From positions 1,440,001-1,472,000 of the forward strand of contig OZ245768.1 in assembly GCA_965227835.1 (NCBI GenBank): a DNA stretch of 32,000 nt. Direction: 5' to 3'. The notes beneath the pieces are model-generated. The model was not told the origin of the DNA. It searched no databases and was given only the letters and a program-made list of their open reading frames with translations. The stretch comes from Candidatus Saccharimonadota bacterium. Its GTDB lineage: Bacteria; Patescibacteriota; Gracilibacteria; BD1-5; UBA6164. Positions 1-27,380 of this stretch are shown piece by piece. The number at the start of each line of letters is the position of its first letter. Position 1 is the stretch's first letter. The translations under genes were made by a program, and so were the position numbers.

Positions 1-600
1 AAATTTCATTTCAATCTGTATCAATAAATCACCGTTTTTCAGCTTTTTCAACTCTGGCAAAACCTTCATTAAAATCTCATACATCATCATAAACTAATTC
101 TCAAATTTCTTTTCAATTTGTATCAATAAATCACCGTTTATCACCTTTTTCAACTTGAGCAAAACCTTCGTTAAAATGTCATACATCATCATAAACTAAT
201 TCTCAAATTTCATTTCAATCTGTATCAATAAATCACTGTTTTTTACCTTTTTTAACTGGAGCAAAACCTCCGTTAAATTCATATACATAATCATAAAAAT
301 TTGGAAATTCTTTTCAATTTGTATCAATAAATCACCATTTTTTACCTTTTTTAACTTGAGCAAAACCTTCTCTAAATTCATATACATAATCATAAAAATT
401 TGGAAATTCTTTTCAATCTGTATCAATAAATCACCGTTTTTCATCTTTTTTAACTTGAGCAAAACCTTCATTAAAATCTCATACATAATCATAAACTAAT
501 TCTCAAATTTTATTTCAATCTATATCAATAAATCACCGTTTTTCATCTTTTTTAACTCTAGCAAAACCTTCTTTAAAATCGTCTATATAATCATAAAAAT
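1..600 (-). repeat. 102-bp (34-codon) tandem coding repeats, WG-type, inside paralog 1 (>=6 copies, continues off window)
   Basis: The unit 'aaatttcatttcaatctgtatcaataaatcaccg...' recurs with a 102-nt period (for example 1 and 103). Two alternating subtypes are present ('...cataaactaattctcaaatttc' and '...cataaaaatttggaaattc'). Confidence 0.9.
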
Positions 601-3076
601 TTGAAATTAATTTTCATTCTTTATTAATGATTCAGTAAATATCATCCTTTTTCCCAATTGCAACTCCATCTTTATATTGTCATGTTCTATCCCAAAAATA
701 TTCTGATTCAATTCAATCTCAATCTCTATCAACAAACCAATATCCTCAATCCCTTTCTATACATACAAATTTTTCTCCTTCCTTAAACTTTTTTAATACT
801 TCATCTCCAAACATATTTCTAATATCTTTATCATTTCCAAGTTTCTTTAAATCAGCTTCTATTTCCATTCCAACAGCTTCAAATTTTTCCAAGAAATATC
901 ATCATAAATCATTTACAAAATCTATAAAAGGTTCTTCAAATCCTGAGGCCCAACCTAACTTTGCTAAAGAATCTATATCCTCTTTAGGGATTTCAAAATC
1001 TTTTTTTCACTCCATATCCTCCAACAATCTATTAGCAATAACCCCTATCTCATACCGATTTTCATTTCAATCATTTTTAACTGAAGACTTTGCTAAATAT
1101 TGTAAGAATTCTTCTTGCTTTTTAGTATTATCTGAAAAATCTATCTCATCTAGCTTTCTAATTTCATAAGGATCTAGGTTTGCCAAATCATAGGGATCAA
1201 TAAATTTTGTTCCAGAATCTTTAAAAATATCATTATCAGACATAATATTTCTATCCAAATCAGTTCTATCAACATCAATCATCCTATCTTCAAGCAATCA
1301 AATATCAGATTTTATAATTAATCAATTTTGAGAAAAAATTTTAATCAAAAGTAATCTATCAATAGTAGGATAGGCAGGGTTTGATAAGAAATCAGCAATT
1401 TTTATTTTTATAAACTTTTTAAAATCAAATTGAGACCCCCTAAATCCATTAAACAAAGAAACAAATTTTCAAATTTCAAGGATAGCTTTTTGCAAATGAA
1501 CTCAAGATTTATCAGATAATCCCAAAGAAATTTTCAGTTCAGATCATTTTCATAAATAACTATCTTCTATCTCTTTCAAAGCTTTAACAAGATTATAAAG
1601 AATTCAATCTTTTCACAGTTCTTCTTTACTTAATCAATATATATAACCTTGGGATTCCATCATATGAATTAGAGCCAAATCATAGGCTTCATTATTATTT
1701 AAATAAGATACTTGTATTCAACTAAATAATCTAAGTATAGCAGGATCTATTTCCTCTCTATCAGGGTGTTTTTCTGATTTAATATTTGCAGTAGCAATTA
1801 TTCAAGTAGAATGTAGGGTAATTCTACTATTAGAATCTTCTTGAGGGGCATATTGGCTTCACGATTTTAGAGTAAAAAGATGCTTTACCCTCATAATAAC
1901 ATCATTAGGAATCAAATCTATTTCATCAATAATAGGAACTTTTCATTCAACAAAAGCCTTTAACAATTTTCAAAGTTCAGTAGTGGTTTCTATTTCTCAT
2001 TTTAAAGCAGGTTTTGCAATGAAATCAGAAGCAGTAATTCAAGAATGTCCTGATAATACCATAGCAAAATCATCAACAATTCAAGAATTTTTCTTTGGAC
2101 TGGCACTCCTTATATCATTAATCAAACTTTTTCAAGAAATATCACTATAACTTCTATTTAAGCTTTCAACTGCCTTGACAGCCAAGACGGTTTTACCAGT
2201 TCAAGTAGGTCATGCCAACAATATATTTTCTCCCATTAATAATTTTTCTGTAACACAATCAATTATTTTTTTTCTAGACTCAAAAGTAACAAATCCACTA
2301 TCTTCTAATTCTTTTTTCCAACTTTTCAATTTGTTTAATCTATAAACAGTTGCATTTTCTCTAGAATTTAGCAATTGATTTATTTTTCTTTCTTCCTGTT
2401 TAATCTTTTTTTGAATTTGTTTAATTTTACTCACCTCCGCAGGATTGAGACTTTTTCCTGAAATAAAAGATTTTATCCTTAGAGAAAGAATAATTTTTTC
2501 AGCCTTTTTGATAGTACTCTCTATCTTTAATATTTCAAAAACTCCTTTTTTTCAATTATTAATTATTTCAAACTTATCTTTTCTTTTATTTAATTCATCT
2601 AGATATAAACTTCTTACATCCTCATTACTATAAAGTTCTCTGATTCTTTCAAGATCATTTACTTCTAATCATTCAGATAGAATATAATCTAAACTATCAT
2701 CATCTTCTTCTATACCATTATTTTCAAAATCTTCTCATAATTTTCATCTTATATACAAATCTATTCATTTTTTTAATTCATCTTTTTTTTCATTATACTT
2801 TTTTTCTTTTTCTTTTATTATTTTTTCAAGCTTTGAAGTTTCTTCTTTTTTATATTCTACTTCTTCTCAATCAATTATGTCTTTTACTTTATTTTTTGAT
2901 CAATTTTTTAATCATTCAAGTCATCTTTTTAATCTTTTTATCAATTTAAAATCCTCTTTTAATATTTCTTTAAAATTATCTTTAGAAAAATATGTTCAGA
3001 CTAAACTTGCTAATTCTACCCCACCAGATTCTATTTCAGAGATTTTATCAGGATTTTCATTTATATTATTATTCAT
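1..3076 (-). CDS. Coiled-coil / AAA+ (AAA_5, MoxR-like) ATPase / WG-repeat protein, paralog 1 (3' end beyond window; divergent ATPase cassette)
   Basis: Table-25 frame is open from ATG 3076-3074 (in-frame TAA at 3097-3095 just upstream) down to position 2, with no TAA/TAG. Hand translation: MNNNINENPDK..., a K/E-rich N-region of about 215 aa, then Walker A LLAGPTGTGKT (two motif Gly are TGA at 2212-2210 and 2203-2201). Walker B VPIIDEIDLIP, IIATAN and DPAILRLF follow, then a helical linker and 34-aa repeats GFIDTDGNEIGELVYDDVGDFNEGFA.V. Confidence 0.85.
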
Positions 3077-3106
3077 TTTCTGTTTTTTAAAACATTATTT
3101 ATAAAT

Positions 3107-3136
3107 ATTTTAACATAATTATATGTTTTTATGCAA
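3107..3136 (-). promoter_or_regulatory. Putative sigma70-like promoter of paralog 1 (TTGCAT-N18-TGtTAAAAT on minus strand)
   Basis: Minus strand reads TTGCAT (3136-3131), an 18-nt spacer ending in TGt, then TAAAAT (3112-3107), about 30 nt upstream of ATG 3076. Sequence resemblance only, in AT-rich DNA. Confidence 0.3.
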
Positions 3137-3216
3137 GTATTTTTATTTATAGAAATAATTTTTTATATTTAAATTAAAGATATTCAAATATTTGATTTAA
3201 TTTTGAGGAAAGATAT

Positions 3217-3271
3217 CAAAAAAAGAGCAGAAGATTAGCTTTTGTTTTAAATTATATTCTGCTCTTTTTTT
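3217..3271 (-). terminator. Rho-independent-type hairpin downstream of paralog 2
   Basis: Arms agagcagaa (3224-3232) and ttctgctct (3257-3265) are flanked by an A-run and a T-run. On the minus strand the hairpin is followed by a T-run. Confidence 0.6.
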
Positions 3272-3311
3272 AAATATTTAGTATATTTGATATAAAAATT
3301 TATGTATTATT

Positions 3312-6300
3312 TTATTTTTTTGGTATTTTTTTACAAAACTTTCAATTTGTATCAATAAATCACAATTCTTTACCTTTTTTAACTGGAGCAAAACCTTCAT
3401 TAAAATCTCATACATCATCATAAATTAATTCTCAAATTTCATTTCAATCTGTATCAATAAATCACCGTTTTTTACCTTTTTTAACTGGAGCAAAACCTTC
3501 ATTAAAATCTCATACATCATCATAAACTAATTCTCAAATTTCATTTCAATCTGTATCAATAAATCACCGTTTTTTACCTTTTTTAACTATAGCAAAACCC
3601 TCATTAAAATCTCATACATCATCATAAACTAATTCTCAAATTTCATTTCAATCTGTATCAATAAATCACCGTTTTTCACCTTTTTTAACTCTAGCAAAAC
3701 CTTTGTTAAAACTTAATACATCATCATAAACTAATTCTCAAATTTCATTTCAATCTGTATCAATAAATCACAGTTTTTTACCTTTTTTAACTATAGCAAA
3801 ACCTTCTTTAAAGCCCCATACATCATCATAAACTAATTCTCAAATTTCTTTTCAATTTGTATCAATAAATCACCGTTTTTTACCTTTTTTAACTTTAGCA
3901 AAACCTTCTTTAAAGCCCCATACATCATCATAAACTAATTCTCAAATTTCATTTCAATCTATATCAATAAATCACCGTTTTTTACCTTTTTTAACTTTAG
4001 CAAAACCCTCTTTAAAATCGTATATATAATCATAAAAATTTGAAATTAATTTTCATTCTTTATTAATGAGTCAGTAAATATTATCCTTTTTCCCAATTGC
4101 AACTCCATCTTTATATTCTCATATACTATCCCAAAAATATTCTGATTCAATTCAATCTCAATCTCTATCAACAAACCAATATCCTCAATCACTTTCTATA
4201 CATACAAATTTTTCTCCTTCCTTAAACTTTTTTATTAATTCATCTACAACAGCTTCAAATTTTTCCAAGAAATATCATCATAAATTCTTTATAACTTCTG
4301 CAAAATCATTTTCAAATCCTGATTTTCAAGCTAACTCTATCAAACTATCTATATCCTCTTTAGAAATTTCAAAATCTTTTTTTCACTCCATATCCTCCAA
4401 CAATCTATTAGCAATAACCCCTATCTCATACCGATTTTTATTTCACTCATTTTTAACTGAAGACCTTGCTAAATATTGTAAGAATTTTTTTTGCTTTTTA
4501 TTATTATCTGAAAAACCTATCTCATCTAGCTTTCTAATTTCATAAGGATCTAGGTTTGCCAAATCATAAGAATCAATAAATTTTGTTCCAGAATCTTTAA
4601 AAATATCATTATCAGACATAATATTTCTATCCAAATCATCTCTATCAACATCAATCATCCTATCTTCAAGCAATCAAATATCAGATTTTATAATTAATCA
4701 ATTTTGAGAAAAAATCTTAATCAAAAGTAACCTATCACTCAAAGGATAAGATTCATTTGATATAAATTTTACAATTTTTGTTTTTATAAATTGTTTAAAA
4801 CTAAGTCAAGATTCTTTAAATCATTTAAACATACTTATAAAATTTCATGTTTCAAGAATAGCCTTTTGCAAATAAACTCAAGATTTATCAGATCATCTTA
4901 ATGAAATACTCAAATCAGATCATTTTCATAAATAACTATCTTCTATCTCCTTCAAAGCCTTAATAAGATTAAAAAGAATTCATTCTTTTCATAACTCTTC
5001 TTTACTTAATCAATAAATATAACCTTGAGATTCCATTAAATTCATTATAGCTAAATCATAAGCCTCCTCTTTACTTAGAAAAGGTATTTGTATTCACTTG
5101 TATAATCTAACTATAGCAGGGTCTAGTTCCTCTCTGTCAGGATGTTTTTCTGATTTAATATTTGCTGTTGATATAACACTTGCCTTTTTTAATATATACT
5201 CTTCATCTCAATCTTCTTGAGGAGAATATTTATCTCAAGGTTTTAGAGTAAAAAGATGCTTTACTCTCATAAGAATATCATTAGGAATCAAATCTATTTC
5301 ATCAATAACAGGTATACTTCATTCAACAAAAGATTTTAATAATTTTCATAATTGGGTTCAAGTAGTTGTTCATCATTTTCAATCTGATTTCAAAATGGGT
5401 TTTGCAATAAACTCAGAAGTGGTAATTCAACTATGTCATGAAATTACCCTGGGGCTATAATCTGGATATAATATTTTTAATATTTTTAATGCTAATACTG
5501 TTTTTCAAGTTCAAGTTGCTCATGTAAGGATAACATTTTCTCACATTATTATATTCTCAATTCATTCATCAATTATTTTTTTTCTAGACTCAAAAGTAAC
5601 AAATCCACTATCTTCTAATTCTTTTTTCCAATTTTTCAATTTGTTTAATCTATAAACAGTTGCATTTTCTCTAGAATTTAGCAATTGATTTATTTTTCTT
5701 TCTTCCTGTTTAATCTTTTTTTGAATTTGTTTAATTTTACTCACCTCCGCAGGATTGAGACTTTTTCCTGAAATAAAAGATTTTATCCTTAGAGAAAGAA
5801 TAATTTTTTCAGCCTTTTTGATAGTACTCTCTATCTTTAATATTTCAAAAACTCCTTTTTTTCAATTATTAATTATTTCAAACTTATCTTTTCTTTTATT
5901 TAATTCATCTAGATATAAACTTCTTACATCCTCATTACTATAAAGTTCTCTGATTCTTTCAAGATCATTTACTTCTAATCATTCAGATAGAATATAATCT
6001 AAACTATCATCATCTTCTTCTATACCATTATTTTCAAAATCTTCTCATAATTTTCATCTTATATACAAATCTATTCATTTTTTTAATTCATCTTTTTTTT
6101 CATTATACTTTTTTTCTTTTTCTTTTATTATTTTTTCAAGCTTTGAAGTTTCTTCTTTTTTATATTCTACTTCTTCTCAATCAATTATGTCTTTTACTTT
6201 ATTTTTTGATCAATTTTTTAATCATTCAAGTCATCTTTTTAATCTTTTTATCAATTTAAAATCCTCTTTTAATATTTCTTTAAAATTATCTTTAGAAAAA

Positions 6301-6386
6301 TATGTTCAAACTAAACTTGCTAATTCTACCCCACCAGATTCTATTTCAGAGATTTTATCAGGATTTTCATTTATATTATTATTCAT
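3312..6386 (-). CDS. Coiled-coil / AAA+ (AAA_5, MoxR-like) ATPase / WG-repeat protein, paralog 2 (about 1024 aa)
   Basis: Table-25 frame is open from ATG 6386-6384 to TAA 3314-3312. The repeat part was checked triplet by triplet and the ATPase part was translated. Walker A ILTGATGTGKT, Walker B IPVIDEIDLIP, VISTAN, DPAIVRLY. C-terminus ...ELGFIDTNGKFCKKIPKK*. The standard-code fragments 4443..4673 and 5562..5744 lie in this same frame. Confidence 0.85.
3342..4050 (-). repeat. 102-bp tandem coding repeats (about 7 copies) inside paralog 2
   Basis: Direct reading shows a 102-nt period. The coding frame gives GFIDTDGNEIGELVYDDVGDFNEGFA.VKKGKKR. Confidence 0.9.
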
Positions 6387-6416
6387 TTTCTGTTGTTTAA
6401 AACATTATTTATAAAT

Positions 6417-6446
6417 ATTTTAACATAATTATATGTTTTTATGCAA
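6417..6446 (-). promoter_or_regulatory. Putative promoter of paralog 2 (same motif)
   Basis: Identical motif copy: atttta 6417-6422 and atgcaa 6441-6446 on the plus strand. Confidence 0.3.
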
Positions 6447-6485
6447 GTATTGATTAATATTTGATTTAACTTTGAGGAAAGATAT

Positions 6486-6539
6486 CAAAAAAAGAGCAGA
6501 AGATCAGCTTTTGTTTAAATTAGTTTCTACTCTTTTTTT
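6486..6539 (-). terminator. Rho-independent-type hairpin downstream of paralog 3
   Basis: Arms agagcagaa (6493-6501) and ttctactct (6525-6533), with one mismatch, flanked by A/T runs. Confidence 0.5.
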
Positions 6540-6579
6540 AAATATTTAGTATATTTGATATAAAAATTTATGTATTATT

Positions 6580-9500
6580 TTATTTTTTTGGTATTTTTTT
6601 ACAAAACCTTCAATTTGTATCAATAAATCACAATTCTTTACCTTTTTTAACTGGAGCAAAACCTTCATTAAAATCTCATACATCATCATAAATTAATTCT
6701 CAAATTTCATTTCAATCTGTATCAATAAATCACCGTTTTTTACCTTTTTTAACTCTGGCAAAACCTTCATTAAAATCTCATACATCATCATAAACTAATT
6801 CTCAAATTTCATTTCAATCTGTATCAATAAATCACCGTTTTTTACCTTTTTTAACTATAGCAAAACCTTCATTAAAATCTCATACATCATCATAAACTAA
6901 TTCTCAAATTTCATTTCAATCTGTATCAATAAATCACCGTTTTTCACCTTTTTTAACTCTAGCAAAACCTTTGTTAAAACTTAATACATCATCATAAACT
7001 AATTCTCAAATTTCATTTCAATCTGTATCAATAAATCACCGTTTTTCATCTTTTTCAACTCTGGCAAAACCTTCATTAAAATCTCATAAATAATCATAAA
7101 CTAATTCTCAAATTTCATTTCAATCTGTATCAATAAATCACCGTTTTTCAGCTTTTTCAACTCTGGCAAAACCTTCATTAAAATCTCATAAATCATCATA
7201 AAAATTTGGAAATTCTTTTCAATCTGTATCAATAAATCACCGTTTTTTACCTTTTTTAACTGGAGCAAAACCTTCTGAAAAATCGTCTATATAATCATAA
7301 AGATTTGAAATTAATTCTCCTTTTGTGTTTATAAATCACCATTTTTCATCTTTTTCAACTCTAGCAAAACCTTCTCTAAATTCATATACATAATCATAAA
7401 AATTTGGAAATTCTTTTCAATCTGTATCAATAAATCACCGTTTTTCATCTTTTTTAACTTGAGCAAAACCTTCATTAAAATCTCATACATAATCATAAAA
7501 ATTTGGAAATTCTTTTCAATCTGTATCAATAAATCACCGTTTTTCATCTTTTTTAACTTGAGCAAAACCTTCATTAAAATCTCATACATAATCATAAACT
7601 AATTCTCAAATTTCATTTCAATCTATATCAATAAATCACCGTTTTTTACCTTTTTTAACTTTAGCAAAACCCTCTTTAAAATCGTCTATATAATCATAAA
7701 AATTTGAAATTAATTTTCATTCTTTATTAATGAGTCAGTAAATATCATCCTTTTCCCCAATTGCAACTCCATCTTTATATTCTCATATACTATCCCAAAA
7801 ATATTTTCATGGAGTTCAATTTCAATCCCTATCAACAAACCAATATTCTCAATCACTTTCTATACATACAAATTTTTCTCCTTCCTTAAACTTTTTTATT
7901 AATTCATCTACAACAGCTTCAAATTTTTCCAAGAAATATCATCATAAATTCTTTATAACTTCTGCAAAATCATTTTCAAATCCTGATTTTCAAGCTAACT
8001 CTATCAAACTATCTATATCCTCTTTAGAAATTTCAAAATCTTTTTTTCACTCCATATCCTCCAACAATCTATTAGCAATAACCCCTATCTCATACCGATT
8101 TTTATTTCACTCATTTTTAACTGAAGACCTTGCTAAATATTGTAAGAATTTTTTTTGCTTTTTATTATTATCTGAAAAACCTATCTCATCTAGCTTTCTA
8201 ATTTCATAAGGATCTAGGTTTGCCAAATCATAAGAATCAATAAATTTTGTTCCAGAATCTTTAAAAATATCATTATCAGACATAATATTTCTATCCAAAT
8301 CATCTCTATCAACATCAATCATCCTATCTTCAAGCAATCAAATATCAGATTTTATAATTAATCAATTTTGAGAAAAAATCTTAATCAAAAGTAACCTATC
8401 ACTCAAAGGATAAGATTCATTTGATATAAATTTTACAATTTTTGTTTTTATAAATTGTTTAAAACTAAGTCAAGATTCTTTAAATCATTTAAACATACTT
8501 ATAAAATTTCATGTTTCAAGAATAGCCTTTTGCAAATAAACTCAAGACCTATCAGATCATCTTAATGAAATACTCAAATCAGATCATTTTCATAAATAAC
8601 TATCTTCTATCTCCTTCAAAGCCTTAATAAGATTAAAAAGAATTCATTCTTTTCATAACTCTTCTTTACTTAATCAATAAATATAACCTTGAGATTCCAT
8701 TAAATTCATTATAGCTAAATCATAAGCCTCCTCTTTACTTAGAAAAGGTATTTGTATTCACTTGTATAATCTAACTATAGCAGGGTCTAGTTCCTCTCTG
8801 TCAGGATGTTTTTCTGATTTAATATTTGCTGTTGATATAACACTTGCCTTTTTTAATATATACTCTTCATCTCAATCTTCTTGAGGAGAATATTTATCTC
8901 AAGGTTTTAGAGTAAAAAGATGCTTTACTCTCATAAGAATATCATTAGGAATCAAATCTATTTCATCAATAATAGGTATACTTCATTCAACAAAAGATTT
9001 TAATAATTTTCATAATTGGGTTCAAGTGGTTGTTCATCATTTTCAATCTGATTTCAAAATGGGTTTTGCAATAAACTCAGAAGTGGTAATTCAACTATGT
9101 CATGAAATTACCCTGGGGCTATAATCTGGATATAATATTTTTAATATTTTTAATGCTAATACTGTTTTTCAAGTTCAAGTTGCTCATGTAAGGATAACAT
9201 TTTCTCACATTATTATATTCTCAATTCATTCATCAATTATTTTTTTTCTAGACTCAAAAGTAACAAATCCACTATCTTCTAATTCTTTTTTCCAATTTTT
9301 CAATTTGTTTAATCTATAAACAGTTGCATTTTCTCTAGAATTTAGCAATTGATTTATTTTTCTTTCTTCCTGTTTAATCTTTTTTTGAATTTGTTTAATT
9401 TTACTCACCTCCGCAGGATTGAGACTTTTTCCTGAAATAAAAGATTTTACCCTTAGAGATAAAATAATTTTTTCAGCCTTTTTGATAGTACTCTCTATCT

Positions 9501-10050
9501 TTAATATTTCAAAAACTCCTTTTTTTCAATTATTAATTATCTCAAATCTATTTTTTCTTTTATTTAATTCATCTAGATATAAACTCCTTATATCCTCATT
9601 ACTATAAAGTTCTCTGATTCTTTCAAGATCATTTACATCTAATCATTCAGATATTATAGAATCTAAACTATAATAATCATCTTCTATACCACTACTTTCA
9701 AAATCTTCTCATAATTTTCATCTTATATACAAATCTATTCATTTTTTTAATTCATCTTTTTTTTCATTATACTTTTTTTCTTTTTCTTTTATTATTTTTT
9801 CAAGCTTTGAAGTTTCTTCTTTTTTATATTCTACTTCTTCTCAATCAATTATGTCTTTTACTTTATTTTTTGATCAATTTTTTAATCATTCAAGTCATCT
9901 TTTTAATCTTTTTATCAATTTAAAATCCTCTTTTAATATTTCTTTAAAATTATCTTTAGAAAAATATGTTCAAACTAAACTTGCTAATTCTACCCCACCA
10001 GATTCTATTTCAGAGATTTTATCAGGATTTTCATTTATATTATTATTCAT
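6580..10050 (-). CDS. Coiled-coil / AAA+ (AAA_5, MoxR-like) ATPase / WG-repeat protein, paralog 3 (about 1156 aa, longest repeat array)
   Basis: ATG 10050-10048 (TAA at 10056-10054 upstream) to TAA 6582-6580. No in-frame TAA/TAG across 6583-8160 (checked); the remainder is near-identical to paralog 2. Contains canonical EKWGFI (TGG Trp) at about 7340. Confidence 0.85.
6610..7715 (-). repeat. 102-bp tandem coding repeats (about 11 copies) inside paralog 3
   Basis: Same unit as in the other paralogs. Contains an internal degenerate copy of the array-boundary unit at about 7261-7340. Confidence 0.9.
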
Positions 10051-10080
10051 TTTTTATTTATTTAAACATTATTTATAAAT

Positions 10081-10110
10081 ATTTTAACATAATTATATGT
10101 TTTTATGCAA
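10081..10110 (-). promoter_or_regulatory. Putative promoter of paralog 3 (same motif)
   Basis: Identical motif copy: atttta 10081-10086 and atgcaa 10105-10110. Confidence 0.3.
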
Positions 10111-10149
10111 GTATTGATTAATATTTGATTTAACTTTGAGGAAAGATAT

Positions 10150-10205
10150 CAAAAAAAGAGCAGAAGATCAGCTTTTGTTTTAAATTATATTCTGCTCTTT
10201 TTTTA
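10150..10205 (-). terminator. Rho-independent-type hairpin downstream of paralog 4
   Basis: Arms agagcagaa (10157-10165) and ttctgctct (10190-10198), flanked by A/T runs. Confidence 0.6.
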
Positions 10206-10244
10206 AATATTTAGTATATTTGATATAAAAATTTATGTATTATT

Positions 10245-13211
10245 TTATTTTTTTGGTATTTTTTTACAAAACTTTCAATTTGTATCAATAAATCACCACT
10301 CTTTACCTTTTAAAACTTTAGCAAAACCTTCATTAAAATATCATACATCATCATAAACTAATTCTCAAATTTCATTTCAATCTGTACCAATAAATCACAG
10401 TTTTTTACCTTTTTTAACTGGAGCAAAACCTTCTCTAAATTCATATACATAATCATAAAAATTTGGAAATTCTTTTCAATCTGTATCAATAAATCACCGT
10501 TTTTCATCTTTTTTAACTCTAGCAAAACCTTCTTTAAAATCTCATACATAATCATAAACTAATTCTCAAATTTCATTTCAATTTGTATCAATAAATCACC
10601 ATTTTTTACCTTTTTTAACTTGAGCAAAACCTTCTTTAAAATGCCATACAACGTCATAAAAATTTGGAAATTCATTTCAATCTATATCAATAAATCACCA
10701 TTTTTTACCTTTTTTAACTGGAGCAAAACCTTCTTTAAAATCTCATACATAATCATAAACTAATTCTCAAATTTCATTTCAATTTGTATCAATAAATCAC
10801 CGTTTTTCATCTTTTTTAACTCTAGCAAAACCTTCTTTAAAATCGTCTATATAATCATAAAAATTTGAAATTAATTTTCATTCTTTATTAATGAGTCAGT
10901 AAATATTATCCTTTTTCCCAATTGCAACTCCATCTTTATATTCTCATATACTATCCCAAAAATATTCTGATTCAATTCAATCTCAATCTCTATCAACAAA
11001 CCAATATCCTCAATCCCTTTCTATACATACAAATTTTTCTCCTTCCTTAAACTTTTTTATTAATTCATCTACAACAGCTTCAAATTTTTCCAAGAAATAT
11101 CATCATAAATTCTTTATAACTTCTGCAAAATCATTTTCAAATCCTGATTTTCAAGCTAACTCTATCAAACTATCTATATCCTCTTTAGAAATTTCAAAAT
11201 CTTTTTTTCACTCCATATCCTCCAACAATCTATTAGCAATAACCCCTATCTCATACCGATTTTTATTTCACTCATTTTTAACTCAAGACCTTGCTAAATA
11301 TTGTAAGAATTCTTTTTGCTTTTTAGTATTATCTGAAAAACCTATCTCATCTAGCTTTCTAATTTCATAAGGATCTAGGTTTGCCAAATCATAAGAATCA
11401 ATAAATTTTGTTCCAGAATCTTTAAAAATATCATTATCAGACATAATATTTCTATCCAAATCATCTCTATCAACATCAATCATCCTATCTTCAAGCAATC
11501 AAATATCAGATTTTATAATTAATCAATTTTGAGAAAAAATCTTAATCAAAAGTAACCTATCACTCAAAGGATAAGATTCATTTGATATAAATTTTACAAT
11601 TTTTGTTTTTATAAATTGTTTAAAACTAAGTCAAGATTCTTTAAATCATTTAAACATACTTATAAAATTTCATGTTTCAAGAATAGCCTTTTGCAAATAA
11701 ACTCAAGACCTATCAGATCATCTTAATGAAATACTCAAATCAGATCATTTTCATAAATAACTATCTTCTATCTCCTTCAAAGCCTTAATAAGATTAAAAA
11801 GAATTCATTCTTTTCATAACTCTTCTTTACTTAATCAATAAATATAACCTTGAGATTCCATTAAATTCATTATAGCTAAATCATAAGCCTCCTCTTTACT
11901 TAGAAAAGGTATTTGTATTCACTTGTATAATCTAACTATAGCAGGGTCTAGTTCCTCTCTGTCAGGATGTTTTTCTGATTTAATATTTGCTGTTGATATA
12001 ACACTTGCCTTTTTTAATATATACTCTTCATCTCAATCTTCTTGAGGAGAATATTTATCTCAAGGTTTTAGAGTAAAAAGATGCTTTACTCTCATAAGAA
12101 TATCATTAGGAATCAAATCTATTTCATCAATAATAGGTATACTTCATTCAACAAAAGATTTTAATAATTTTCATAATTGGGTTCAAGTGGTTGTTCATCA
12201 TTTTCAATCTGATTTCAAAATGGGTTTTGCAATAAACTCAGAAGTGGTAATTCAACTATGTCATGAAATTACCCTGGGGCTATAATCTGGATATAATATT
12301 TTTAATATTTTTAATGCTAATACTGTTTTTCAAGTTCAAGTTGCTCATGTAAGGATAACATTTTCTCACATTATTATATTCTCAATTCATTCATCAATTA
12401 TTTTTTTTCTAGACTCAAAAGTAACAAATCCACTATCTTCTAATTCTTTTTTCCAATTTTTCAATTTGTTTAATCTATAAACAGTTGCATTTTCTCTAGA
12501 ATTTAGCAATTGATTTATTTTTCTTTCTTCCTGTTTAATCTTTTTTTGAATTTGTTTAATTTTACTCACCTCCGCAGGATTGAGACTTTTTCCTGAAATA
12601 AAAGATTTTACCCTTAGAGATAAAATAATTTTTTCAGCCTTTTTGATAGTACTCTCTATCTTTAATATTTCAAAAACTCCTTTTTTTCAATTATTAATTA
12701 TTTCAAACTTATCTTTTCTTTTATTTAATTCATCTAGATATAAACTTCTTACATCCTCATTACTATAAAGTTCTCTGATTCTTTTAAGATCATTTACTTC
12801 TAATCATTCAGATAGAATATAATCTAAACTATCATCATCTTCTTCTATACCACTACTTTCAAAATCTTCTCATAATTTTCATCTTATATACACATCTATT
12901 CATTTTTTGAATTCATCTTTTTTTTCTTTATACTTTTTTTCTTTTTCTTTTATTATTTTTTCAAGCTTTGAAGTTTCTTCTTTTTTATATTCTACTTCTT
13001 CTCAATCAATTATATCTTTTACTTTATTTTTTGATCAATTTTTTAATCATTCAAGTCATCTTTTTAATCTTTTTATCAATTTAAAATCCTCTTTTAATAT
13101 TTCTTTAAAATTATCTTTAGAAAAATATGTTCAAACTAAACTTGCTAATTCTACCCCACCAGATTCTATTTCAGAGATTTTATCAGGATTTTCATTTATA
13201 TTATTACTCAT
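10245..13211 (-). CDS. Coiled-coil / AAA+ (AAA_5, MoxR-like) ATPase / WG-repeat protein, paralog 4 (about 988 aa)
   Basis: ATG 13211-13209 (TAA 13217-13215 upstream) to TAA 10247-10245. The repeat part was checked triplet by triplet. Track fragments 11283..11498 and 12387..12569 are in this frame. C-terminus ...KEWGFIDTNGKFCKKIPKK*. Confidence 0.85.
10275..10890 (-). repeat. 102-bp tandem coding repeats (about 6 copies) inside paralog 4
   Basis: Same unit and same frame as the other arrays. Confidence 0.9.
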
Positions 13212-13241
13212 TTTTTATTTATTTAAACATTATTTATAAAT

Positions 13242-13271
13242 ATTTTAACATAATTATATGTTTTTATGCAA
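13242..13271 (-). promoter_or_regulatory. Putative promoter of paralog 4 (same motif), in the divergent region shared with the VWA gene
   Basis: Identical motif copy: atttta 13242-13247 and atgcaa 13266-13271. Confidence 0.3.
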
Positions 13272-13387
13272 GTATTTTTATTTATAGAAATAATTTTTTA
13301 TATTTAAATTAAATACATTCAAATATTTGATTTAACTTTGAATTTGTTGTAAAATATTTTTAGCTATTAACTATAATCTTTATTGAT

Positions 13388-15646
13388 ATGTGAATATCTA
13401 CAACATCAAAATGACCAAAAGAAGAATTGAATCAAACAGGTCTTGACCTTGAAAACCTGAAAAATTGGGTAAATTTTTACTCAAGAAGACTATGAATTAA
13501 CTTTTTGATAGACGAAAATCTACCAGCCCCTGCTGCTATCCCAGATAATTCTACAAAAACAGATCTAACTATTATGTTAAATCCTAAACTTTTGGTTCAA
13601 AAGTTTGGTTTTAAATCAGAAGAGTTACTTTTTATCATGTTTCATGAAATAGAACACCTGATTGAGGGCTCTAAAATGAAAAGTACAGATGTATGAAAGA
13701 AAATAGCAGAAGAAAGAGAAAGAAGATTCAAAGAAGCCAAACATTTTGCATGAGCAATACATACATTAGAAAATGCTGTAAGAGATGTTTATGTTAATAA
13801 TCAAGGTGTGTCAAAAGCTCCTGTTTTATCTAAAACTAGAAAAGAACTTTATGAAAATCATCTTTTTAAACGGCCTGATTTTTTAAAAACCCCCGAGTTT
13901 TGAAAAGATTGAAAAGAAACTTGAAAATTCTCCCCACTTCCAAAACATTTACAATTTGCATATACTATCCTAAGGGAAGCTATGCTTCCAGAAGAGAAAT
14001 GTAATATAGATCCTGATATAAGACGAAAAATAAATAGTTTTAAAAGAATATGAGTTATAGAAGATTGTGTTAATTGAGATTTATCAAACAGATTAAATAA
14101 TATTTGGGACTATCTGGAACCTACCTATAAAAAACTTTTAGAAGAAGATATAAAAAATAAAAATACTCCTGAAAAACCTAATAATAAAAAATGAGATCAA
14201 TGAAATGATGAAGATAATTGAAATTCTTCTAATAATTCAAATCAAAATGGTGATTGAAAACAAGATGAATCAAATGATGGAAATCAAGACTCATCATGAG
14301 GAAATGGACAGGATTTAGATAGGGAAATTCAAAATGATCTTTGAAAAGGAGAAGAGGGTTTAGATAAAGAAAATCAAAATGGTGATTGAAAACAAGACGA
14401 ATCTGAAACTCAAAATCAAGGTTCACCATGAAGAAATGGAGAAAAAACAACTGAAAATGAACCTGTAGAAACAAATTCAAATAGTCCCGAAGATAAAGGA
14501 GATGAAAACAATTGGGCTAAGAATCCTTTTGAGGATTTATATGAGAATTTTTGAAATCTTCCTCATATATTAGATGAAGCTTTGAGTAAAGATGATATGG
14601 AAAAAGTTAAATCTGAAATAGATAAAAAAGTAAATTCAAGTAAGCCAAAATCAAGAGAACAATTAGAGTTAGAAAATAGAGCTGAAAATATGTGAATTAG
14701 CCGTGATAATCAAGAATTTGAAGATATTGTTGATAAACTAAGGGAATATGATAGATTTCTTGAACAGTTAAAATCTGTAAAGGATAGCGAAACTTGAAAT
14801 AGTGTTATGGAGGAAATATGTAGTTTATTTGAAAATATTAGAGCTAGCAGGTTAAAACCTAAAATGAAATCTAAATGACCAGTTGATATGGAACACTGAG
14901 TTAGACTTGATGGTTGATCTGTTGCTACATGAATTGCTGAAATTAAATCTGGAAATTTTAATCCTTTGATGTTTGCTAAAAATGTAACTCATTTAAAAGA
15001 AAATTTACTTGTTTGAGATTTTGATTTAACCATCATTGCTGATTGAACATGAAGTATGCAATGAGAAAAAAATAGACAACAAAAAATTGCTTTTCTTCTT
15101 ATTTTAGAAGCATTAAAAATGCTACATGATAAAATTGAAATAAATAAATCTTATCTGAAAAAACCTATTAATTTTCAAACTACATGATTTATTTTCGGAA
15201 GACATTCTAGATGCATAAAAGAAAAATCTAGTGATATCAAAGATAAAGAAAGACTCCAATTATACTCTTCATTAGATGAATATGATTGACCTAAAAATAA
15301 TGAATGACTTCTACTTGAAAAAATTTATAAAGACTTTCATTATAATACTTCTGAATCTGAAAAAAAAGAAATAAAAGACTGAAAAACTAAAAAAATCATC
15401 ATTGTTTTGAGTGACTGATGACAAGATGTACCAGAATATGAAAGAAAGTTAAGAGAAAATATAAGTAATTTTAGAAATGACTGAGTTTTAGTCTATGCAG
15501 TAGGTATAACAAATGATTGAAGTCCTGTTGTTGATCTATTTTCTTGAGAAAATAAATCTCTTTGATTTTGACAGGTCTGTGAAGATGTTTGAGATCTAGC
15601 TAAAACAATAAAAGACTTACTTGTGGATCATATAAAAGAGATTTAA
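13388..15646 (+). CDS. HExxH metallopeptidase-like (DUF2201_N-type) + von Willebrand factor A domain protein (about 752 aa)
   Basis: Table-25 ORF from ATG 13388 (in-frame TAG at 13361) to TAA 15644-15646, with many in-frame TGA. N-terminal part ...TIMLNPKLL...ELLFIMFHEIEHLIEG (HExxH). C-terminal part DLTIIADGTGSM (MIDAS-like DxTxS) ... KKIIIVLSDGGQD ... VLVYAVGITNDG, typical of VWA. A central G/D/N/Q-rich low-complexity region separates them. Confidence 0.8.
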
Positions 15647-15804: not shown

Positions 15805-17031
15805 TTAAGATTTTTCTAAAAATTCACTTATCATTTTTATAATTAAATTTTCATTTACTACCTTTCTTCCTGAATCATAAGTTGTTCTTAATGCTTCTTT
15901 TGAGTTATCTAGTTGGTTTATTTCTATATCTTTATTATCTATTAAAATAATTTTTCATTTTGCTTCTAATTTTTTAAGTATATCCAGATATTCCTTTGTA
16001 TATATTTCATCTCATTTATTAAATATAGTTCCAACCTTATTGCTATCAAGTAAATTCAAAATTCTTTCAATTACTTCTCATTTGTATTTATTTTTTGGTC
16101 TATCTGTATTTTCTGGTAGTATTATTATTGGTATAATAGAATCTTTTAAATTTAATCAATCATTACTTAATATTTCATGTCATAATGGTAAAGATTTTCT
16201 TGATAATAAACTATGCTCTATAGGAAGAGGATCTGCAAAACTTCAATCACTTGATTTTATGACTACTCATTCTACATTTAAATTTCTACCATATCATGAC
16301 AATCTAGGAACTGCTTTTGTAGCTTCTAGTGCTTTCATAAATTCTTCTCATTCTAAATATGTAGCTCAATCAACTCATTTTTTATTTGTTATGTAGAAAG
16401 CATTTCAATTTTTATCATCTCTAAGAGGTACTATTAGAGTTATATTTGATTTTTTTAATTCTTCTAAGTTCAATTTTACTCACTTAATTTTCCCTCAGTC
16501 TTCTATATCATTACTGAAAAGCCTTATAACTTCTCCTGGATCTAGAAGCATCTCAAAATCTTTTAATTTTCAAGAAAATACATCTTCTGGATTTTCCAAT
16601 ATAGATGACACTGAAGAACTTGTCGTAAACATTCCTAGTAATATCTCTTTAACTTTTATATTTAAATATTTTAATTCAGCAATACGTTTTAAAAACAATC
16701 TTCAAATTAACTTTATATCACTATTAGGCTTTAGAAATTTTTTATTATCTGCTAATCAATTCAACCATATATTTGTTCATTTTTCAAACTGTCATGAGGC
16801 ATAATAGGCTAGAGTTCAAGCACTTGCTGATGGTCATAGTACATAATTTGCTTTTATTCATTTATCTTCTAACCCTTGTATTGCACCGAGTATCCATGCT
16901 CATTTCATGGCTCAACCTGGAGAAACTATGGCAAATTCAATATTTTTATCTTGTTTTAATCTTTCCATTATTATGTCAATACCTTTTTCTCTTTCATTTT
17001 TCTCATAACTTCTATATTTTATGCTCTCCAT
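15805..17031 (-). CDS. Patatin-like phospholipase (about 408 aa)
   Basis: Table-25 ORF from ATG 17031-17029 to TAA 15807-15805; an alternative in-frame ATG lies at 17076. Motifs: FAIVSPGGAMKGAW (oxyanion Gly-rich loop), YVLGPSASAGTLAYY (variant nucleophile elbow) and SSDGSFADPLPI (catalytic Asp, DG motif). Confidence 0.75.
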
Positions 17032-19059: not shown

Positions 19060-19884
19060 TTACTCACTAAACTTTCCTTTCAAAACATTTCTAAAAAAAC
19101 CGAATAAAAAATCCAAATCAGTTTTTATAGGATGTTTTTCATATTTTCTCAAATATAATCTTTCTAATGCTTCTAAATTTGAAATATTTTTTGTTTTTTT
19201 TAGACAATAATAAATTGAAATAAGGCCATACTTTATATTCTGTTCTAACCTTTTTCTAAACTTAGGTGTATAATCTTCCAAATCCCTTATTTCTTTAGGT
19301 CTAATCCCAACTAGCTTTAAATCTCCTTTCAAAAGCCAGTATATTTGTGGAATTTCATCTATCCAATACTTCCTTAAAAACTTATGGAATCTAGATATGT
19401 AAAGCCCTTCATGGTTAGGTTTTCCTTTAGAATTTAAAGACCTATCTTTGGGATGATTATTCAAAGTTCTAATTTTTGGTAAACTAATATATTTTCATTT
19501 TTGAATTGTTTTTCTCCAATAGAAAAAACTCATATTATGGTTTGTTTCTTCATATTTATTTTTTTCCTCTTCTTCCATCTTTTTTTCCTCTTTAAAAGAG
19601 ATTTTATTTATTACTTTATTATAATTTTTTCAATATATAAAACTATACTCTTCTTCTAAATCTTTTGATACATAATTTGTTATCCACATATCATTTAATG
19701 AATTTTTATCATAGTCTATTGAATCTAGCTCTGGATTTTCTAGTAATTCTCTTGCTTTCATTTTACAATATTCTAAGTATTTATTGGTATGGTTAAATCC
19801 ATATTCATCTTTCAAAAAATACTTATTTTTAAAAATTGTTTCTACACCTTTAAGACAAGAATGTTTGCTTTTTGTATAAATCAT
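19060..19884 (-). CDS. Chimeric protein: N-terminal module shared with the CHC2 gene + bacterial sugar transferase (PglC/WbaP C-terminal type) catalytic domain without TM helix
   Basis: Table-25 ORF from ATG 19884 to TAA 19062-19060; track ORFs 19630..19884 and 19060..19464 are joined through TGA codons at 19632-19630 and 19497-19495. Motifs: GKYISLPKIRTL (KFRTM-like) and FLRKYWIDEIPQIYWLLKGDLKLVGIRP (DE-PQ...VGPRP signature). No hydrophobic N-terminal segment. Confidence 0.65.
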
Positions 19885-19893
19885 AAAAATTTT

Positions 19894-21081
19894 TTACAAC
19901 ATTTCTTTTAAAAAATCTATTCCTAGTTCACGAAAGTTATAATCATATCAATATATAGGTTTTAGGTTTGTATATTCAAGACATTTTTCTAAAATTCTCT
20001 TATCCATTCTTCAATATCTTGAGCTACATCATGATATGATTATATATTCTTTTCATATATAAAATGAACTTCATCAAATTATTTCATAATTATTATATTT
20101 TAGCTCTATTTCACCATGATAACCTGCTCATAAATTAGCCATCTCATCTGTATCATCCATTATCGTAAATAAATCTTTTAATCATTCTATTTTATGAGTT
20201 ATTTGGACTTTTTTATTTCAAAAAACCAGCTGGAAAGTTTTTTTATCTTTTAGATAAACTAATAGGCATTTTCAGCAATCTCAAGGGTATAAATTTCCTA
20301 ATAAACTAAAATTACATAAATTGAGCATATGCAATGGAATATAACTTTCTTTTAGATAATCATTCACAGATTTCTCAATAATAATTAAATCTAATTTTTT
20401 CTTAAAAGTCCTTTTTTCTTCTAGTTTTTTATTCTCTTCAACTATTCTTGCTATTTCCTCTTCTTCTATCTTTTTTTGCTCTTTAAAAGAAATTTCATTT
20501 ATTACTTTATTATAACTTTTTCAATATATAAAACTATACTCTTCTTCTAAATCTTTTGATACATCATTTGTTATTCACATATCATCTAATGATTTTTTGT
20601 CATAATATATTGAATCTAGGTTTGGATTCTCTAGTAATTCTTTTGCTCTCATTTTACAATATTCTAAATATTCATCAATATAACTAGATTCATCTACACT
20701 AGGCAAAAATACTTTTTCTTCATAAGAGTCACAAAATTCTAGTTTTTCTTTTATTCCACATACTTTTTTTATATAAAAAGCTGATTGAATCACATTTTTT
20801 CATGAAACTCTTTGAACTAAGTCAATTATGTCTCAATTCTCTAAACATCAATAACAATAATAACTTCAATGATCTTTGTATATTTTAAAAGAAGCATTTA
20901 CTTCTTCGTGAAAGGGGCATTTAGAGTATTTATTCTTACCCACCTTAATTCATAGACTTTTAGCAACTTTTATTATATCTCATTTTGATATTATTAAATC
21001 AATAGAAGAGGCTTTTAAGCCTCTTCATAAATGGGTTTTTTCAACTTCAAAATAGGAATGTTCATTTTCTACACGAATCAT
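19894..21081 (-). CDS. DnaG-type CHC2 zinc-finger protein (primase-like; possible degenerate Toprim)
   Basis: Table-25 ORF from ATG 21081-21079 (TAA 21111-21109 upstream) to TAA 19896-19894. Zinc finger: CPFHEEVNASFKIYKDHGSYYCYGCLENGDIIDLV. Later LIIIEKSVNDY and IMDDTDEMANLGAG loosely resemble the Toprim E...DxD motifs. Confidence 0.65.
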
Positions 21082-21111
21082 AAAAATTTGAAAGTTAAAA
21101 ATATAAAATTA

Positions 21112-22827: not shown

Positions 22828-22927
22828 TTATTTATTAAAACAAAAAGTAACTTATTGAATACAAAAATTGATTTTATTATAATAGTTTATATATTATATA
22901 CATATTCTAATATTAATATAAAAAATT

Positions 22928-23989
22928 ATGTTGAATTGATTATCTTTATTTGCTAATGTGTGAATAGCAGAATTTTATTTGAGAGAACTATGAATAAAAG
23001 TAGTGCTTGCAAATGAATTATTAAAAAAAAGAGCTAATTTATATAAACATTTTCATCCTAGTAGTAATATTATTTGTTGAGATATTACAAAAAATGATAT
23101 ATATAATAAAATATTAGAAGAATCAAAAAAAGCAGATGTAGATTTTGTTATGGCAACACCTCCTTGTCAATGAATGAGTATAGCTTGAAAAATGAATGAA
23201 AATGATCCAAGAAATTCACTAATAATGAAAGCTGTTGAAATCATAAAAGAGTTAAACCCTAAATATTGATTAATAGAAAATGTTCCTTGATTTTTAAAAA
23301 CATATATTCAATATAATTGAGAAAAAATATTAATTACTGACTATATTAATAACGAATTATGAGATAATTTTAATCTAAAATTTGATATTTTAGATGCCTC
23401 TAAGCATTGAACACCTCAAGTTAGAAAAAGAGCCTTTGTTTTAATTTCAAATAAAAATACTTGAAAAGAAATTAATTTTCCCAGAGAACAAAAAGAAATA
23501 ACTGTAGAAGATGCAATTTGACATTTACCAAGTTTAGAAAGCTGAGAAACATCAAATATAGAATATCATAATTCTAAAAAACATAATAGTAAACATATAT
23601 TATGGATGAAGAATACACCTACTTGAAAAACAGCATTTGATAATGATAAACACTTCCCTCAAAAAGATAATTGAGAAAGAATAAGATGATTTAATACAAC
23701 GTATAAAAGAATAAATTGGGATAAACCAGCGCCTACAATTACCATGTGTAGTTGAGCAATTTCTTCTCAAAATAATGTTCATCCTTGAAGAAAAAAAGAT
23801 AATTGAGAATTCTCTGATGCTAGAGTTCTTACATTAAAAGAATTATTTATACTAATGTGATTACCAGATAATATTAAATTACCCAATTGGGCTAGTGATA
23901 ATTTTATAAGGCAGGTCATTTGAGAATGAGTACCTCCTATTTTTATTAGAGAAATTTTAAAAGAAATAAAACAAGCGGATTATAATTAA
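22928..23989 (+). CDS. DNA (cytosine-5) methyltransferase (about 353 aa)
   Basis: ATG 22928 to TAA 23987-23989 under table 25. Motif I GLSLFANVGIAE; motif IV ATPPCQGMS (Gly = TGA at 23171-23173); motif VI ENVPGF; GTPQVRKRAFV; motif X GEGVPP. Confidence 0.9.
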
Positions 23990-23990
23990 T

Positions 23991-24917: not shown

Positions 24918-24929
24918 ATTATTATATTT

Positions 24930-27351: not shown

Positions 27352-27380
27352 AATAAAAAACAAGAGCTTTAGCTCTTGTT
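27352..27380 (-). terminator. Rho-independent terminator of the giant ORF
   Basis: aacaagagc (27359-27367), loop ttta, gctcttgtt (27372-27380). On the minus strand it is followed by a T-run. It overlaps the stop codon at 27381-27379. Confidence 0.65.

Follow-up and report, generated by a model that had tools for sequence, protein, structure and literature searches.

A tandem array of MoxR-class AAA+ ATPases with WG-repeat tails and a VWA partner in a bacterium of the candidate phyla radiation: a candidate ligand-sensing system

What might four large ATPase genes arranged in tandem do in a bacterium belonging to the CPR (candidate phyla radiation)? The genes, named here U1 to U4 from left to right, lie at the left end of a 32,000-nucleotide stretch of contig OZ245768.1 (positions 1,440,001 to 1,472,000 of the forward strand; assembly GCA_965227835.1, Candidatus Saccharimonadota bacterium, placed within Gracilibacteria by GTDB), and this whole stretch is referred to below as the window. 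To our knowledge, almost nothing is known of the ways in which CPR bacteria, tiny and dependent on hosts, detect either invaders or those hosts, and we know of no mechanism assigned to the commonest target of CPR diversity-generating retroelements (DGRs), an AAA ATPase with a lectin-fold tail. The present analysis suggests, with what we take to be an even chance of being right, that the products of the array sense ligands in the cytoplasm in the manner of NLRs, with a MoxR-VWA machine as their basis, and that they were diversified by duplication and recombination, not by hypermutation.

Translated with TGA as glycine (the code is discussed below), each paralog comprises a helical N-terminal region, a MoxR-class AAA+ core, a helical linker and 7-12 WG repeats. 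The N-terminal region, which a sequence-only reading of the window had put at about 215 aa, extends in fact over about 270 aa; it holds the family-conserved motifs VELASL and RELYS, and neither this region nor the linker corresponds to a Pfam family. The AAA_5 core and the WG repeats proposed in that reading were both recovered by Pfam profiles. AAA_5 scores 41.4 bits in U3 and 33.5 bits in U1 against a cut-off of 22, and matches 38 of 45 sampled family members as well; WG_beta_rep (PF14903) finds 10 units in U3 (254.8 bits) and six in the partial U1 (135 bits). Among 32-35 family members, K295 and T296 of Walker A, D362 and E363 of Walker B, the sensor-1 asparagine N409 and the arginine before strand 5, R427, show either no variation or a conservation of at least 90%. 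The ATPase should therefore be active, its catalytic motifs being intact.

A sequence-level search of the PDB revealed no solved structure among relatives of the ATPase, and the bpMoxR profile gave no match in it. The fold was assessed with an AlphaFold model of the U4 product (P0034), built on a 35-sequence family alignment and with tryptophan at the TGA codons, so that its fine detail is unreliable. In the model, which has a predicted local distance difference test score (pLDDT) of 70-94 over residues 9-690, the N-terminal region is made of long helices and a small beta-hairpin; the AAA+ core is alpha/beta and carries its lid, and the linker forms a helical domain. In a Foldseek search, the top 18 PDB matches were all NorQ or the Rubisco activase CbbQ (E from 4e-8, target-normalised TM-score 0.68-0.76), with NorQ represented both alone and in complexes with the VWA protein NorD. 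Of the "MoxR/McrB-like" core suggested earlier, the MoxR half is supported; McrB appears only at rank 19 and below, with dynein and Clp/Lon also lower. The paralogs are 988-1156 aa long, unlike compact stand-alone MoxR proteins of about 250-350 aa; the additional length is made up of the 270-aa N-terminal region, the linker of about 285 aa and the C-terminal repeats.

The MoxR assignment becomes mechanistically meaningful because a VWA protein, overlooked in the sequence-only reading, adjoins the array. The product of this partner gene begins with an N-terminal domain bearing an HExxH motif and ends in a C-terminal VWA domain; between the two lie a disordered linker of about 140 aa (approximately aa 260-400), in which N, G, E and D abound, and a helical middle region that is conserved. 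The HEIEH motif (H86, E87, H90) lies within a predicted helix, residues 77-99, and E93, N129, D133 and H187 are likewise invariant in the partner family. The N-terminal domain is described here as zincin-like, its peptidase activity as putative. The MIDAS residues of the VWA domain are invariant across partner homologs, and a fold search with the full-length partner model, dominated by VWA matches, returned VWA folds including the MIDAS domain of MDN1/Rea1 (8ql1, 6qtb) and NorD (9qhg_G). As neither the ATPase nor the partner has a transmembrane segment or a signal peptide, both proteins are judged to be cytoplasmic.

The two genes travel together. Among the ten informative loci, that is, those with enough flanking sequence, the partner stands beside or near the ATPase in eight (the window, L001/L002, L003/L013, L005/L014, L007, L008, L009/L010 and L015), with partner homologs 25-66% identical. 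This pairing holds regardless of the C-terminal domain carried by the ATPase, and the architecture of the VWA protein is constant across loci. The partner family is small and CPR-restricted, with 15 clusters found by a word-indexed search. On the source contig the partner is single-copy as against four copies of the ATPase, so that one partner would serve all four paralogs.

The ATPase family itself is large. The word-indexed search found 33 relatives, and an exhaustive search with a HMMER profile extended this to 274 cluster representatives at E<=1e-30 (772 at E<=1e-10); the members are mostly 700-1200 aa long, and the profile matches span the N-terminal region, the ATPase and the linker. The distribution is patchy and mostly CPR-restricted, with relatives in Candidatus Absconditabacterales, Peribacteria (ATPase) and Moraniibacteriota (partner). 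A scan of viral contigs with a glycine-poor conserved stretch found no family member. The sequence-only reading had recognised no characterised family here. This does not hold for the family as a whole, since AAA ATPase-CLec proteins are reported as DGR targets in CPR bacteria (Paul et al. 2017 as summarised in Dore et al. 2024, PMC10907252); it stands for the WG variant and the paralog array, which were not found in the literature searched. The same source also relates that the ATPase was proposed to transduce signals detected by the C-terminal region of these proteins.

While the N-terminal region, the ATPase and the linker are conserved family-wide, the C-terminus is exchanged; most often it is a C-type-lectin-like (CLec) domain. 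A CLec/FGE-sulfatase-like tail with the '...GFR...' signature is present in at least 60 of 136 long members, and by eye in many more; other tails are WD40 (P0015 and P0021) and TPR (P0022), and most of the remaining ones have no Pfam match. WG repeats are limited in the family to the four copies of the window and to P0051 (L011 3322-7536, 1404 aa), in which about 10 WG units are followed by a CLec tail much like the DGR-targeted tail of P0003. This WG-plus-CLec protein may be an evolutionary intermediate between the two architectures; its 15.5-kb locus contains no reverse transcriptase, template repeat or VWA partner. Judged from these sequence comparisons, the C-terminal position is evolutionarily a swappable, diversifying binding module.

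The CLec-tailed relatives are genuine DGR targets at three independent loci. In L001, a second copy of the final 127 nt of the ATPase gene (10922-11048) stands at 11963-12089, beside a reverse transcriptase; the corresponding pair in L003 is 11033-11154 with 13217-13338, on the strand of the reverse transcriptase. In the repeat cores of both loci all mismatches fall at adenines of the template copy. The third locus, L005, from a Peribacteria metagenome-assembled genome, has a template at 15183-15273 and two variable regions, with 15 of 16 and 16 of 16 mismatches at template adenines. The notion of an NTPase coupled to a C-terminal sensor-like module, put forward from the sequence of the window, thus finds its counterpart across the family in a conserved front, swapped tails and a CLec form targeted by DGRs. 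In the window itself no reverse transcriptase, accessory protein or CLec domain was found (tblastn), nor any WG-like template outside the four genes.

Several other features of the DGR loci were recorded. The accessory gene (L001 11098-11946; L003 11228-11959; also in L012 and L015) encodes 243-282 aa and is not a plain small Avd; its N-terminus resembles MutS domain I (PF01624, E 1.5e-6). L001 carries a second small DGR target with a CLec tail just upstream of the AAA-CLec gene (6806-7837, 343 aa) and a separate conventional MoxR gene (2908-4011, bpMoxR/AAA_3). L005 has a second target of 284 aa with its own variable repeat.

The WG repeats of the window vary in a different manner. Tandem Repeats Finder reported 102-nt arrays at 1-597, 3340-4036, 6609-7700 and 10273-10861, composed of two unit types, one of 34 aa (GNEIGELVYDD) and one of 33 aa (GKEFPNFYDY). 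Both the order and the number of units differ per paralog, with 7, 7, 11 and 6 full units in U1 to U4; these are the full units following a degenerate first unit, a terminal partial unit being extra and the seventh unit of U1 being completed from P0002. Positions G9, I11, G15, Y23, D24, F29 and G32-F33-A34 form an invariant scaffold, and the variable positions cluster at 1, 5-6, 8 (the 'W' of the WG motif), 27-28 and 30. Since the number of units varies freely, the sequence suggests an open solenoid, not a closed propeller. The evidence for the C-terminus as DIVERSIFYING ligand binder consists of the adenine-template mismatches, the tail swapping and this clustered WG variation.

The history of the array is mosaic. 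U2, U3 and U4 are 96-97% identical across about 2.9 kb, which bears out the near-identity beyond 2 kb noticed earlier, but U1 does not fit a picture of near-identical copies, its AAA+ core being only about 84% identical to the others at the nucleotide level. Codons 1-270 are near-identical in all four genes (U1 and U2 differ at 2 positions; synonymous divergence, dS, <= 0.04). Over codons 271-600, U1 is anciently diverged from U2-U4, with dS of 0.75 in the core and 0.42 in the first half of the linker, and the ratio of nonsynonymous to synonymous divergence (dN/dS) of about 0.3-0.36 there corresponds to purifying selection; U2, U3 and U4 show 0-2 differences over the same codons. From about codon 560 on, the identity of U1 to the others is back to 95-97%. 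U1 also has inserts of 26 aa after Walker A and 21 aa before the WG repeats, the former common to most family members. U2-U4 differ from one another mainly in the order and number of their WG repeats, and also in an acidic patch at aa 95-170.

The topology of the core-region tree conflicts with the near-identical N-termini. It groups U1 with the single-copy, DGR-targeted ortholog from the nearest relative, L003 (74% identity), not with U2-U4 (71%). Because of this contradiction, the array is best described, from the sequence comparison, as two old core lineages whose ends were recently homogenised by gene conversion. This mosaic divergence bears out the very recent duplication or ongoing gene conversion supposed earlier. 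The upstream regions also occur in two forms, a longer, promoter-proximal one with an extra AT-rich segment of about 40 nt in U1 and U4 (3077-3311, 13212-13387) and a shorter one in U2 and U3 (6387-6579, 10051-10244), which is a further sign of mosaic recombination in the array.

All these comparisons depend on the genetic code, and table 25 (TGA = Gly) is the correct one for the window. With table 11 the whole window, at a G+C content of about 25%, yields a single open reading frame (ORF) of at least 150 aa, and ORF coverage is about 5-fold higher when TGA is read as a sense codon. TGA codons sit at the Walker A glycines (xATxTxKT = GxxGxGKT) and at the G of every WG motif, and homologs from standard-code genomes have glycine at the corresponding sites (GETGTGKT in P0025). 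In U2-U4, TGA is used 224 times against 89 for GGN. Public protein sets use TGA = Trp (table 4) for this genome (P0001, P0002 and P0034-P0036), which makes about 5-7% of residues wrong. The practical lesson is that such a translation turns Walker A into TWATWTWKT and so hides the ATPase domain from precomputed Pfam annotation, which misses AAA_5.

The start codons at 3076, 6386, 10050 and 13211 and the unit lengths of 3310, 3664 and 3161 bp were reproduced exactly on re-derivation. All four copies are intact under table 25, as had been stated: U2-U4 are complete in the window, and U1, whose last 40 codons lie outside, corresponds to the intact P0002 of 1065 aa. The array was thought possibly to continue leftward. 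It does not, because the source contig (1,489,121 bp), on which P0002, P0001, P0035 and P0034 all reside, records only these four family members, the copy number being read from protein-cluster records. Each paralog appears to be its own transcription unit, as an identical promoter-like element precedes every copy; a terminator-like hairpin is seen after U2, U3 and U4, the downstream end of U1 falling outside the window. RNA-family and tRNA scans gave no match near the array. The coordinates of the features are collected in Table 1.

Table 1. Features of the ATPase array and the partner gene, in window coordinates
Feature	Position	Strand	Remarks
Paralog U1	1-3076	-	3' end past window edge; full length 1065 aa = P0002; divergent 'type A' AAA+ core
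Paralog U2	3312-6386	-	1024 aa = P0001; 'type B' AAA+ core
Paralog U3	6580-10050	-	1156 aa = P0035; longest WG array
Paralog U4	10245-13211	-	988 aa = P0034; shortest WG array
N-terminal helical/coiled-coil region (U4 aa 1-270)	12402-13211 (U4); 9241-10050 (U3); 5577-6386 (U2); 2267-3076 (U1)	-	homogenised, dS <= 0.04
AAA_5 (MoxR-class) ATPase domain (U4 aa 284-427)	11931-12362 (U4); 8770-9201 (U3); 5106-5537 (U2); 1724-2227 (U1)	-	
Lid and helical linker (U4 aa 441-725)	11037-11891	-	no Pfam match; pLDDT about 70-94 to roughly aa 690
WG-repeat region	10245-11036 (U4); 6580-7875 (U3); 3312-4211 (U2); 1-772 (U1)	-	33/34-aa units, 102-nt period
Promoter-like TTGCAT-N18-TAAAAT	13242-13271 (U4); identical at 10081-10110, 6417-6446, 3107-3136	-	upstream of each paralog
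Terminator-like hairpin with A/T-run flanks	10151-10204 (after U4); identical at 6487-6539 (after U3), 3218-3271 (after U2)	-	z = -5.0
Partner gene	13388-15646	+	single copy, 752 aa = P0036; HExxH domain, linker, helical middle, VWA
HEIEH motif of partner (H86, E87, H90)	13643-13657	+	invariant in partner family
VWA domain of partner (aa 546-712)	15023-15523	+	27 bits vs cut-off 23.8; MIDAS DGTGSM ... NNE ... SDGG intact

The remainder of the window carries other genes. A patatin-like phospholipase gene (PF01734, 29.8 bits; 15805-17031, minus strand) is convergent with the partner gene; it was considered as a component of the system and rejected, and is probably unrelated, because in no other locus is it conserved next to the system. 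Two adjacent ORFs on the minus strand, 19060-19893 and 19894-21108, share a duplicated segment of about 70 aa (YLEYCKM..ELLENP.LDSI.YDK.SL.DM.ITN.VSKDLEEEYSFIYGK.YNKVIN.ISFKE.KK); one ends in a Bac_transf sugar-transferase domain, and the other starts with a DnaG-type CHC2 zinc ribbon, the rest of the primase lacking, so that 19060-21108 looks like a rearranged or chimeric region. A convergent restriction-modification pair consists of a C-5 cytosine methylase (22922-23989, plus strand; PF00145, E 1.7e-50) and an R.HinP1I-like endonuclease (23991-24929, minus strand; PF11463, E 7e-7). At the right edge, an ORF of more than 1540 aa (27379-31998, minus strand) runs out of the window; judged by eye, it has PKD-like repeat segments, a hydrophobic stretch and a long tail of low complexity in which K, E and D abound, and it is probably a surface protein.

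Taken together, the findings allow a mechanism to be proposed. The WG tail would bind a ligand that varies and is most likely foreign (a component of a phage or of another invader, for example), and the ligand would gate the assembly or the ATPase cycle of a MoxR-type ring, for which the fold and the catalytic motifs were found. The ring would then engage the VWA/MIDAS domain of the partner, as NorQ does with NorD and CbbQ with CbbO; the pairing of the genes is observed, the contact of the proteins is supposed. Finally, the ring might remodel the partner or exert a pull on the acidic linker, so that the zincin-like domain, as the output, is set free or brought into position. In the relatives the tail is diversified somatically by the DGR, and in this genome by tandem duplication, unit reshuffling and gene conversion. 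The homogenised N-terminal region would represent the interface with the single shared partner, and its identity has probably been kept by gene conversion because all four copies must fit that partner. It is an evenly balanced judgement that the role, as the most likely one, is the sensing of invaders, which is consistent with the conflict-system reading of MoxR-VWA-DGR associations (PMC7159879, PMC10907252). A wider proposal, that these proteins form a distinct class of CPR intracellular immune receptors, NLR-analogous, with a MoxR ring, a shared VWA-zincin output and a tail diversified in either of two interchangeable ways, by DGR on a CLec tail in most lineages or by a germline WG array reshuffled through unequal recombination here, P0051 being the intermediate, is tentative and on the whole doubtful.

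Several points weigh against the sensor reading. All of the evidence is computational, consisting of sequence comparison and predicted structures, and the WG region, modelled at a pLDDT of about 24, offers no modelled ligand-binding surface. The HExxH domain has no Pfam match even at permissive thresholds, which returned noise only, and its sole PDB sequence match, MJ1213, is weak (E 0.19); peptidase activity is for these reasons unproven. In L011 and L016 no partner was seen within reach. Neither protein is matched by a PADLOC defence model, a single match to mads_8 (E 3.6e-4, 34 residues) having been rejected as trivial P-loop similarity, and the restriction-modification pair and the patatin-like gene nearby make a weak defence-island context. 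In the regions testable, dN/dS is nowhere significantly above 1 (best p about 0.18), so diversifying selection is not demonstrated. The value of about 2.1 at aa 601-725 between U1 and U2-U4 (p 0.18) gave rise to no claim, and it is diversification by recombination, not positive selection, that the sequence comparison supports.

Classical MoxR-VWA pairs are maturation chaperones, not immune systems, which also counts against a sensor. On another view, the array encodes a housekeeping MoxR-VWA chaperone maturing or remodelling an endogenous complex (for example by metal insertion, like NorQ/NorD), with the WG repeats recruiting the client and the paralogs serving different clients. The nearest folds, NorQ and CbbQ, are indeed maturation factors with VWA partners, the gene pairing is conserved, and the AAA+ core is under purifying selection (dN/dS about 0.36). 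DGR targeting, however, is unexpected for a housekeeping protein, and three independent loci hypermutate the homologous C-terminus; moreover, this domain is exchanged wholesale among close relatives, the family has a patchy distribution, and none of the loci examined shows a conserved client gene beside it. A chaperone therefore seems unlikely, although it is the main rival. A module for interaction with a host or prey of an epibiotic CPR cell, whose tail would read host molecules in the cytoplasm or serve attachment or uptake, with a repertoire tracking the hosts, would suit what is generally known of the CPR lifestyle and a family mostly confined to CPR lineages. DGR targets elsewhere are often binding proteins that are turned towards the host or the surroundings (PMC8144416). 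But neither protein has the signals for export or membrane insertion, an ATP-driven AAA+ ring with a MIDAS partner indicates the cytoplasm, and the loci examined show no linked genes for secretion or pili; such a function is rather improbable.

Two further explanations can be given little credence. An McrBC-like NTP-dependent system of restriction or nucleic-acid surveillance on an AAA_5 motor might be read from the McrB structures among the fold matches (rank 19 and below), from a weak, sub-threshold MrcB_N match of the N-terminal region (E 0.009, 16 bits against a cut-off of 25) and from the restriction-modification pair at 22922-24929, yet NorQ and CbbQ are clearly better fold matches, no McrC-like or other nuclease partner is present, and the conserved partner is a VWA protein, which leaves this explanation very improbable. 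Nor do we find much to recommend an assembly artefact that created or miscounted the tandem copies. Assembly is difficult for repeats that are about 3 kb long, 96-97% identical and themselves built of 102-nt repeats, but the copies are distinguishable throughout (about 16% nucleotide difference in the U1 core), their repeat orders differ, the intergenic regions are of two forms, the array lies inside a 1.49-Mb contig, and the four proteins are separate database entries; this origin is scarcely to be expected.

The locus is of interest on several counts. The conserved VWA-HExxH partner makes the ATPase a recognisable MoxR-VWA machine with a plausible output, which links the commonest uncharacterised CPR DGR target to the MoxR-VWA mechanism, and the array offers a germline alternative to hypermutation. 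The recognition tail behaves as a swappable cassette (CLec, WG, WD40 or TPR). The window is a natural case in which a paralog array replaces hypermutation while gene conversion protects the constant parts, and the contrast between DGR and array mirrors that between somatic and germline receptor diversity in eukaryotic immunity. The four closely related natural variants could be used for a comparison of ligand specificity.

Among known systems, the closest are the CPR AAA-CLec targets of DGRs themselves (PMC10907252). They are the same family: over the N-terminal region, the AAA_5 core and the linker, alignment of the window copies with DGR-targeted homologs gives 43-58% identity, and the nearest relative of the copies, that of L003/L013, is itself a confirmed DGR target. 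The window copies differ in having WG repeats in place of CLec, in the lack of DGR parts in the window and in their four-fold amplification. The HExxH-VWA partner was not found described for these targets in the literature searched, and no paper was found there describing the partner, the WG/WD40/TPR variants or the paralog array.

The vWA-MoxR ternary conflict systems (Kaur, Burroughs, Iyer and Aravind 2020, PMC7159879) are similar in combining MoxR and VWA genes, hypervariable modules and a predicted role in conflict, and they are frequently tied to DGRs with FGS/CLec domains. In these systems the MoxR is small and stand-alone, and it is the VWA protein or a third component (VMAP, iSTAND, FtsH or beta-propeller) that bears the variable, effector or FGS domains, whereas in the window system the ATPase itself carries the variable domain and the HExxH domain on the VWA protein is constant. 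In the neighbourhoods examined, no third conserved component of this kind (VMAP, iSTAND, FtsH or a beta-propeller on the VWA) recurs; the flanking genes of the window are the patatin-like one, DHODH and others. The ternary systems occur mainly in multicellular bacteria, and CPR was left out of the multicellularity test (PMC7159879).

NorQ-NorD and CbbQ-CbbO (PDB 9qh4-9qhg, 6l1q) provide the best fold matches of the core (TM-score 0.70-0.76), have paired genes, and the NorD VWA domain matches the partner; NorQ and CbbQ differ in being about 260 aa long, without an N-terminal coiled coil or C-terminal repeats, in having one fixed client, and in an identity of only 9-12%. Midasin/Rea1 shares AAA_5 modules and a MIDAS/VWA domain placed after a long acidic disordered linker, its MIDAS being among the best folds for the partner; however, it is one giant eukaryotic polypeptide with six fused AAA modules acting in ribosome biogenesis, while in the window the ring and the MIDAS are separate and the sensor-like tail is on the ring.

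STAND/NLR sensors (Avs, bNACHT and eukaryotic NLRs) resemble the paralogs in a constant N-terminus, a central NTPase, a variable repeat or lectin C-terminus and paralog expansion, and some STAND proteins have DGR-diversified CLec tails, as PMC10907252 reports. No STAND family (NACHT, NB-ARC or similar) appears in the Pfam or NCBIfam results for the paralogs. The NTPase of the window is a MoxR-class AAA+, and the presumed output is on a separate VWA protein, not in an N-terminal effector. Thus, the STAND/NLR-like logic proposed in the sequence-only reading is retained for the architecture, an NTPase with a variable C-terminal sensor, but not for the module, and the likeness to NLRs is an analogy only, because the core is not a STAND ATPase. 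Although it falls outside several neighbouring families, the protein seems to work like a MoxR-VWA machine and to be laid out like an NLR.

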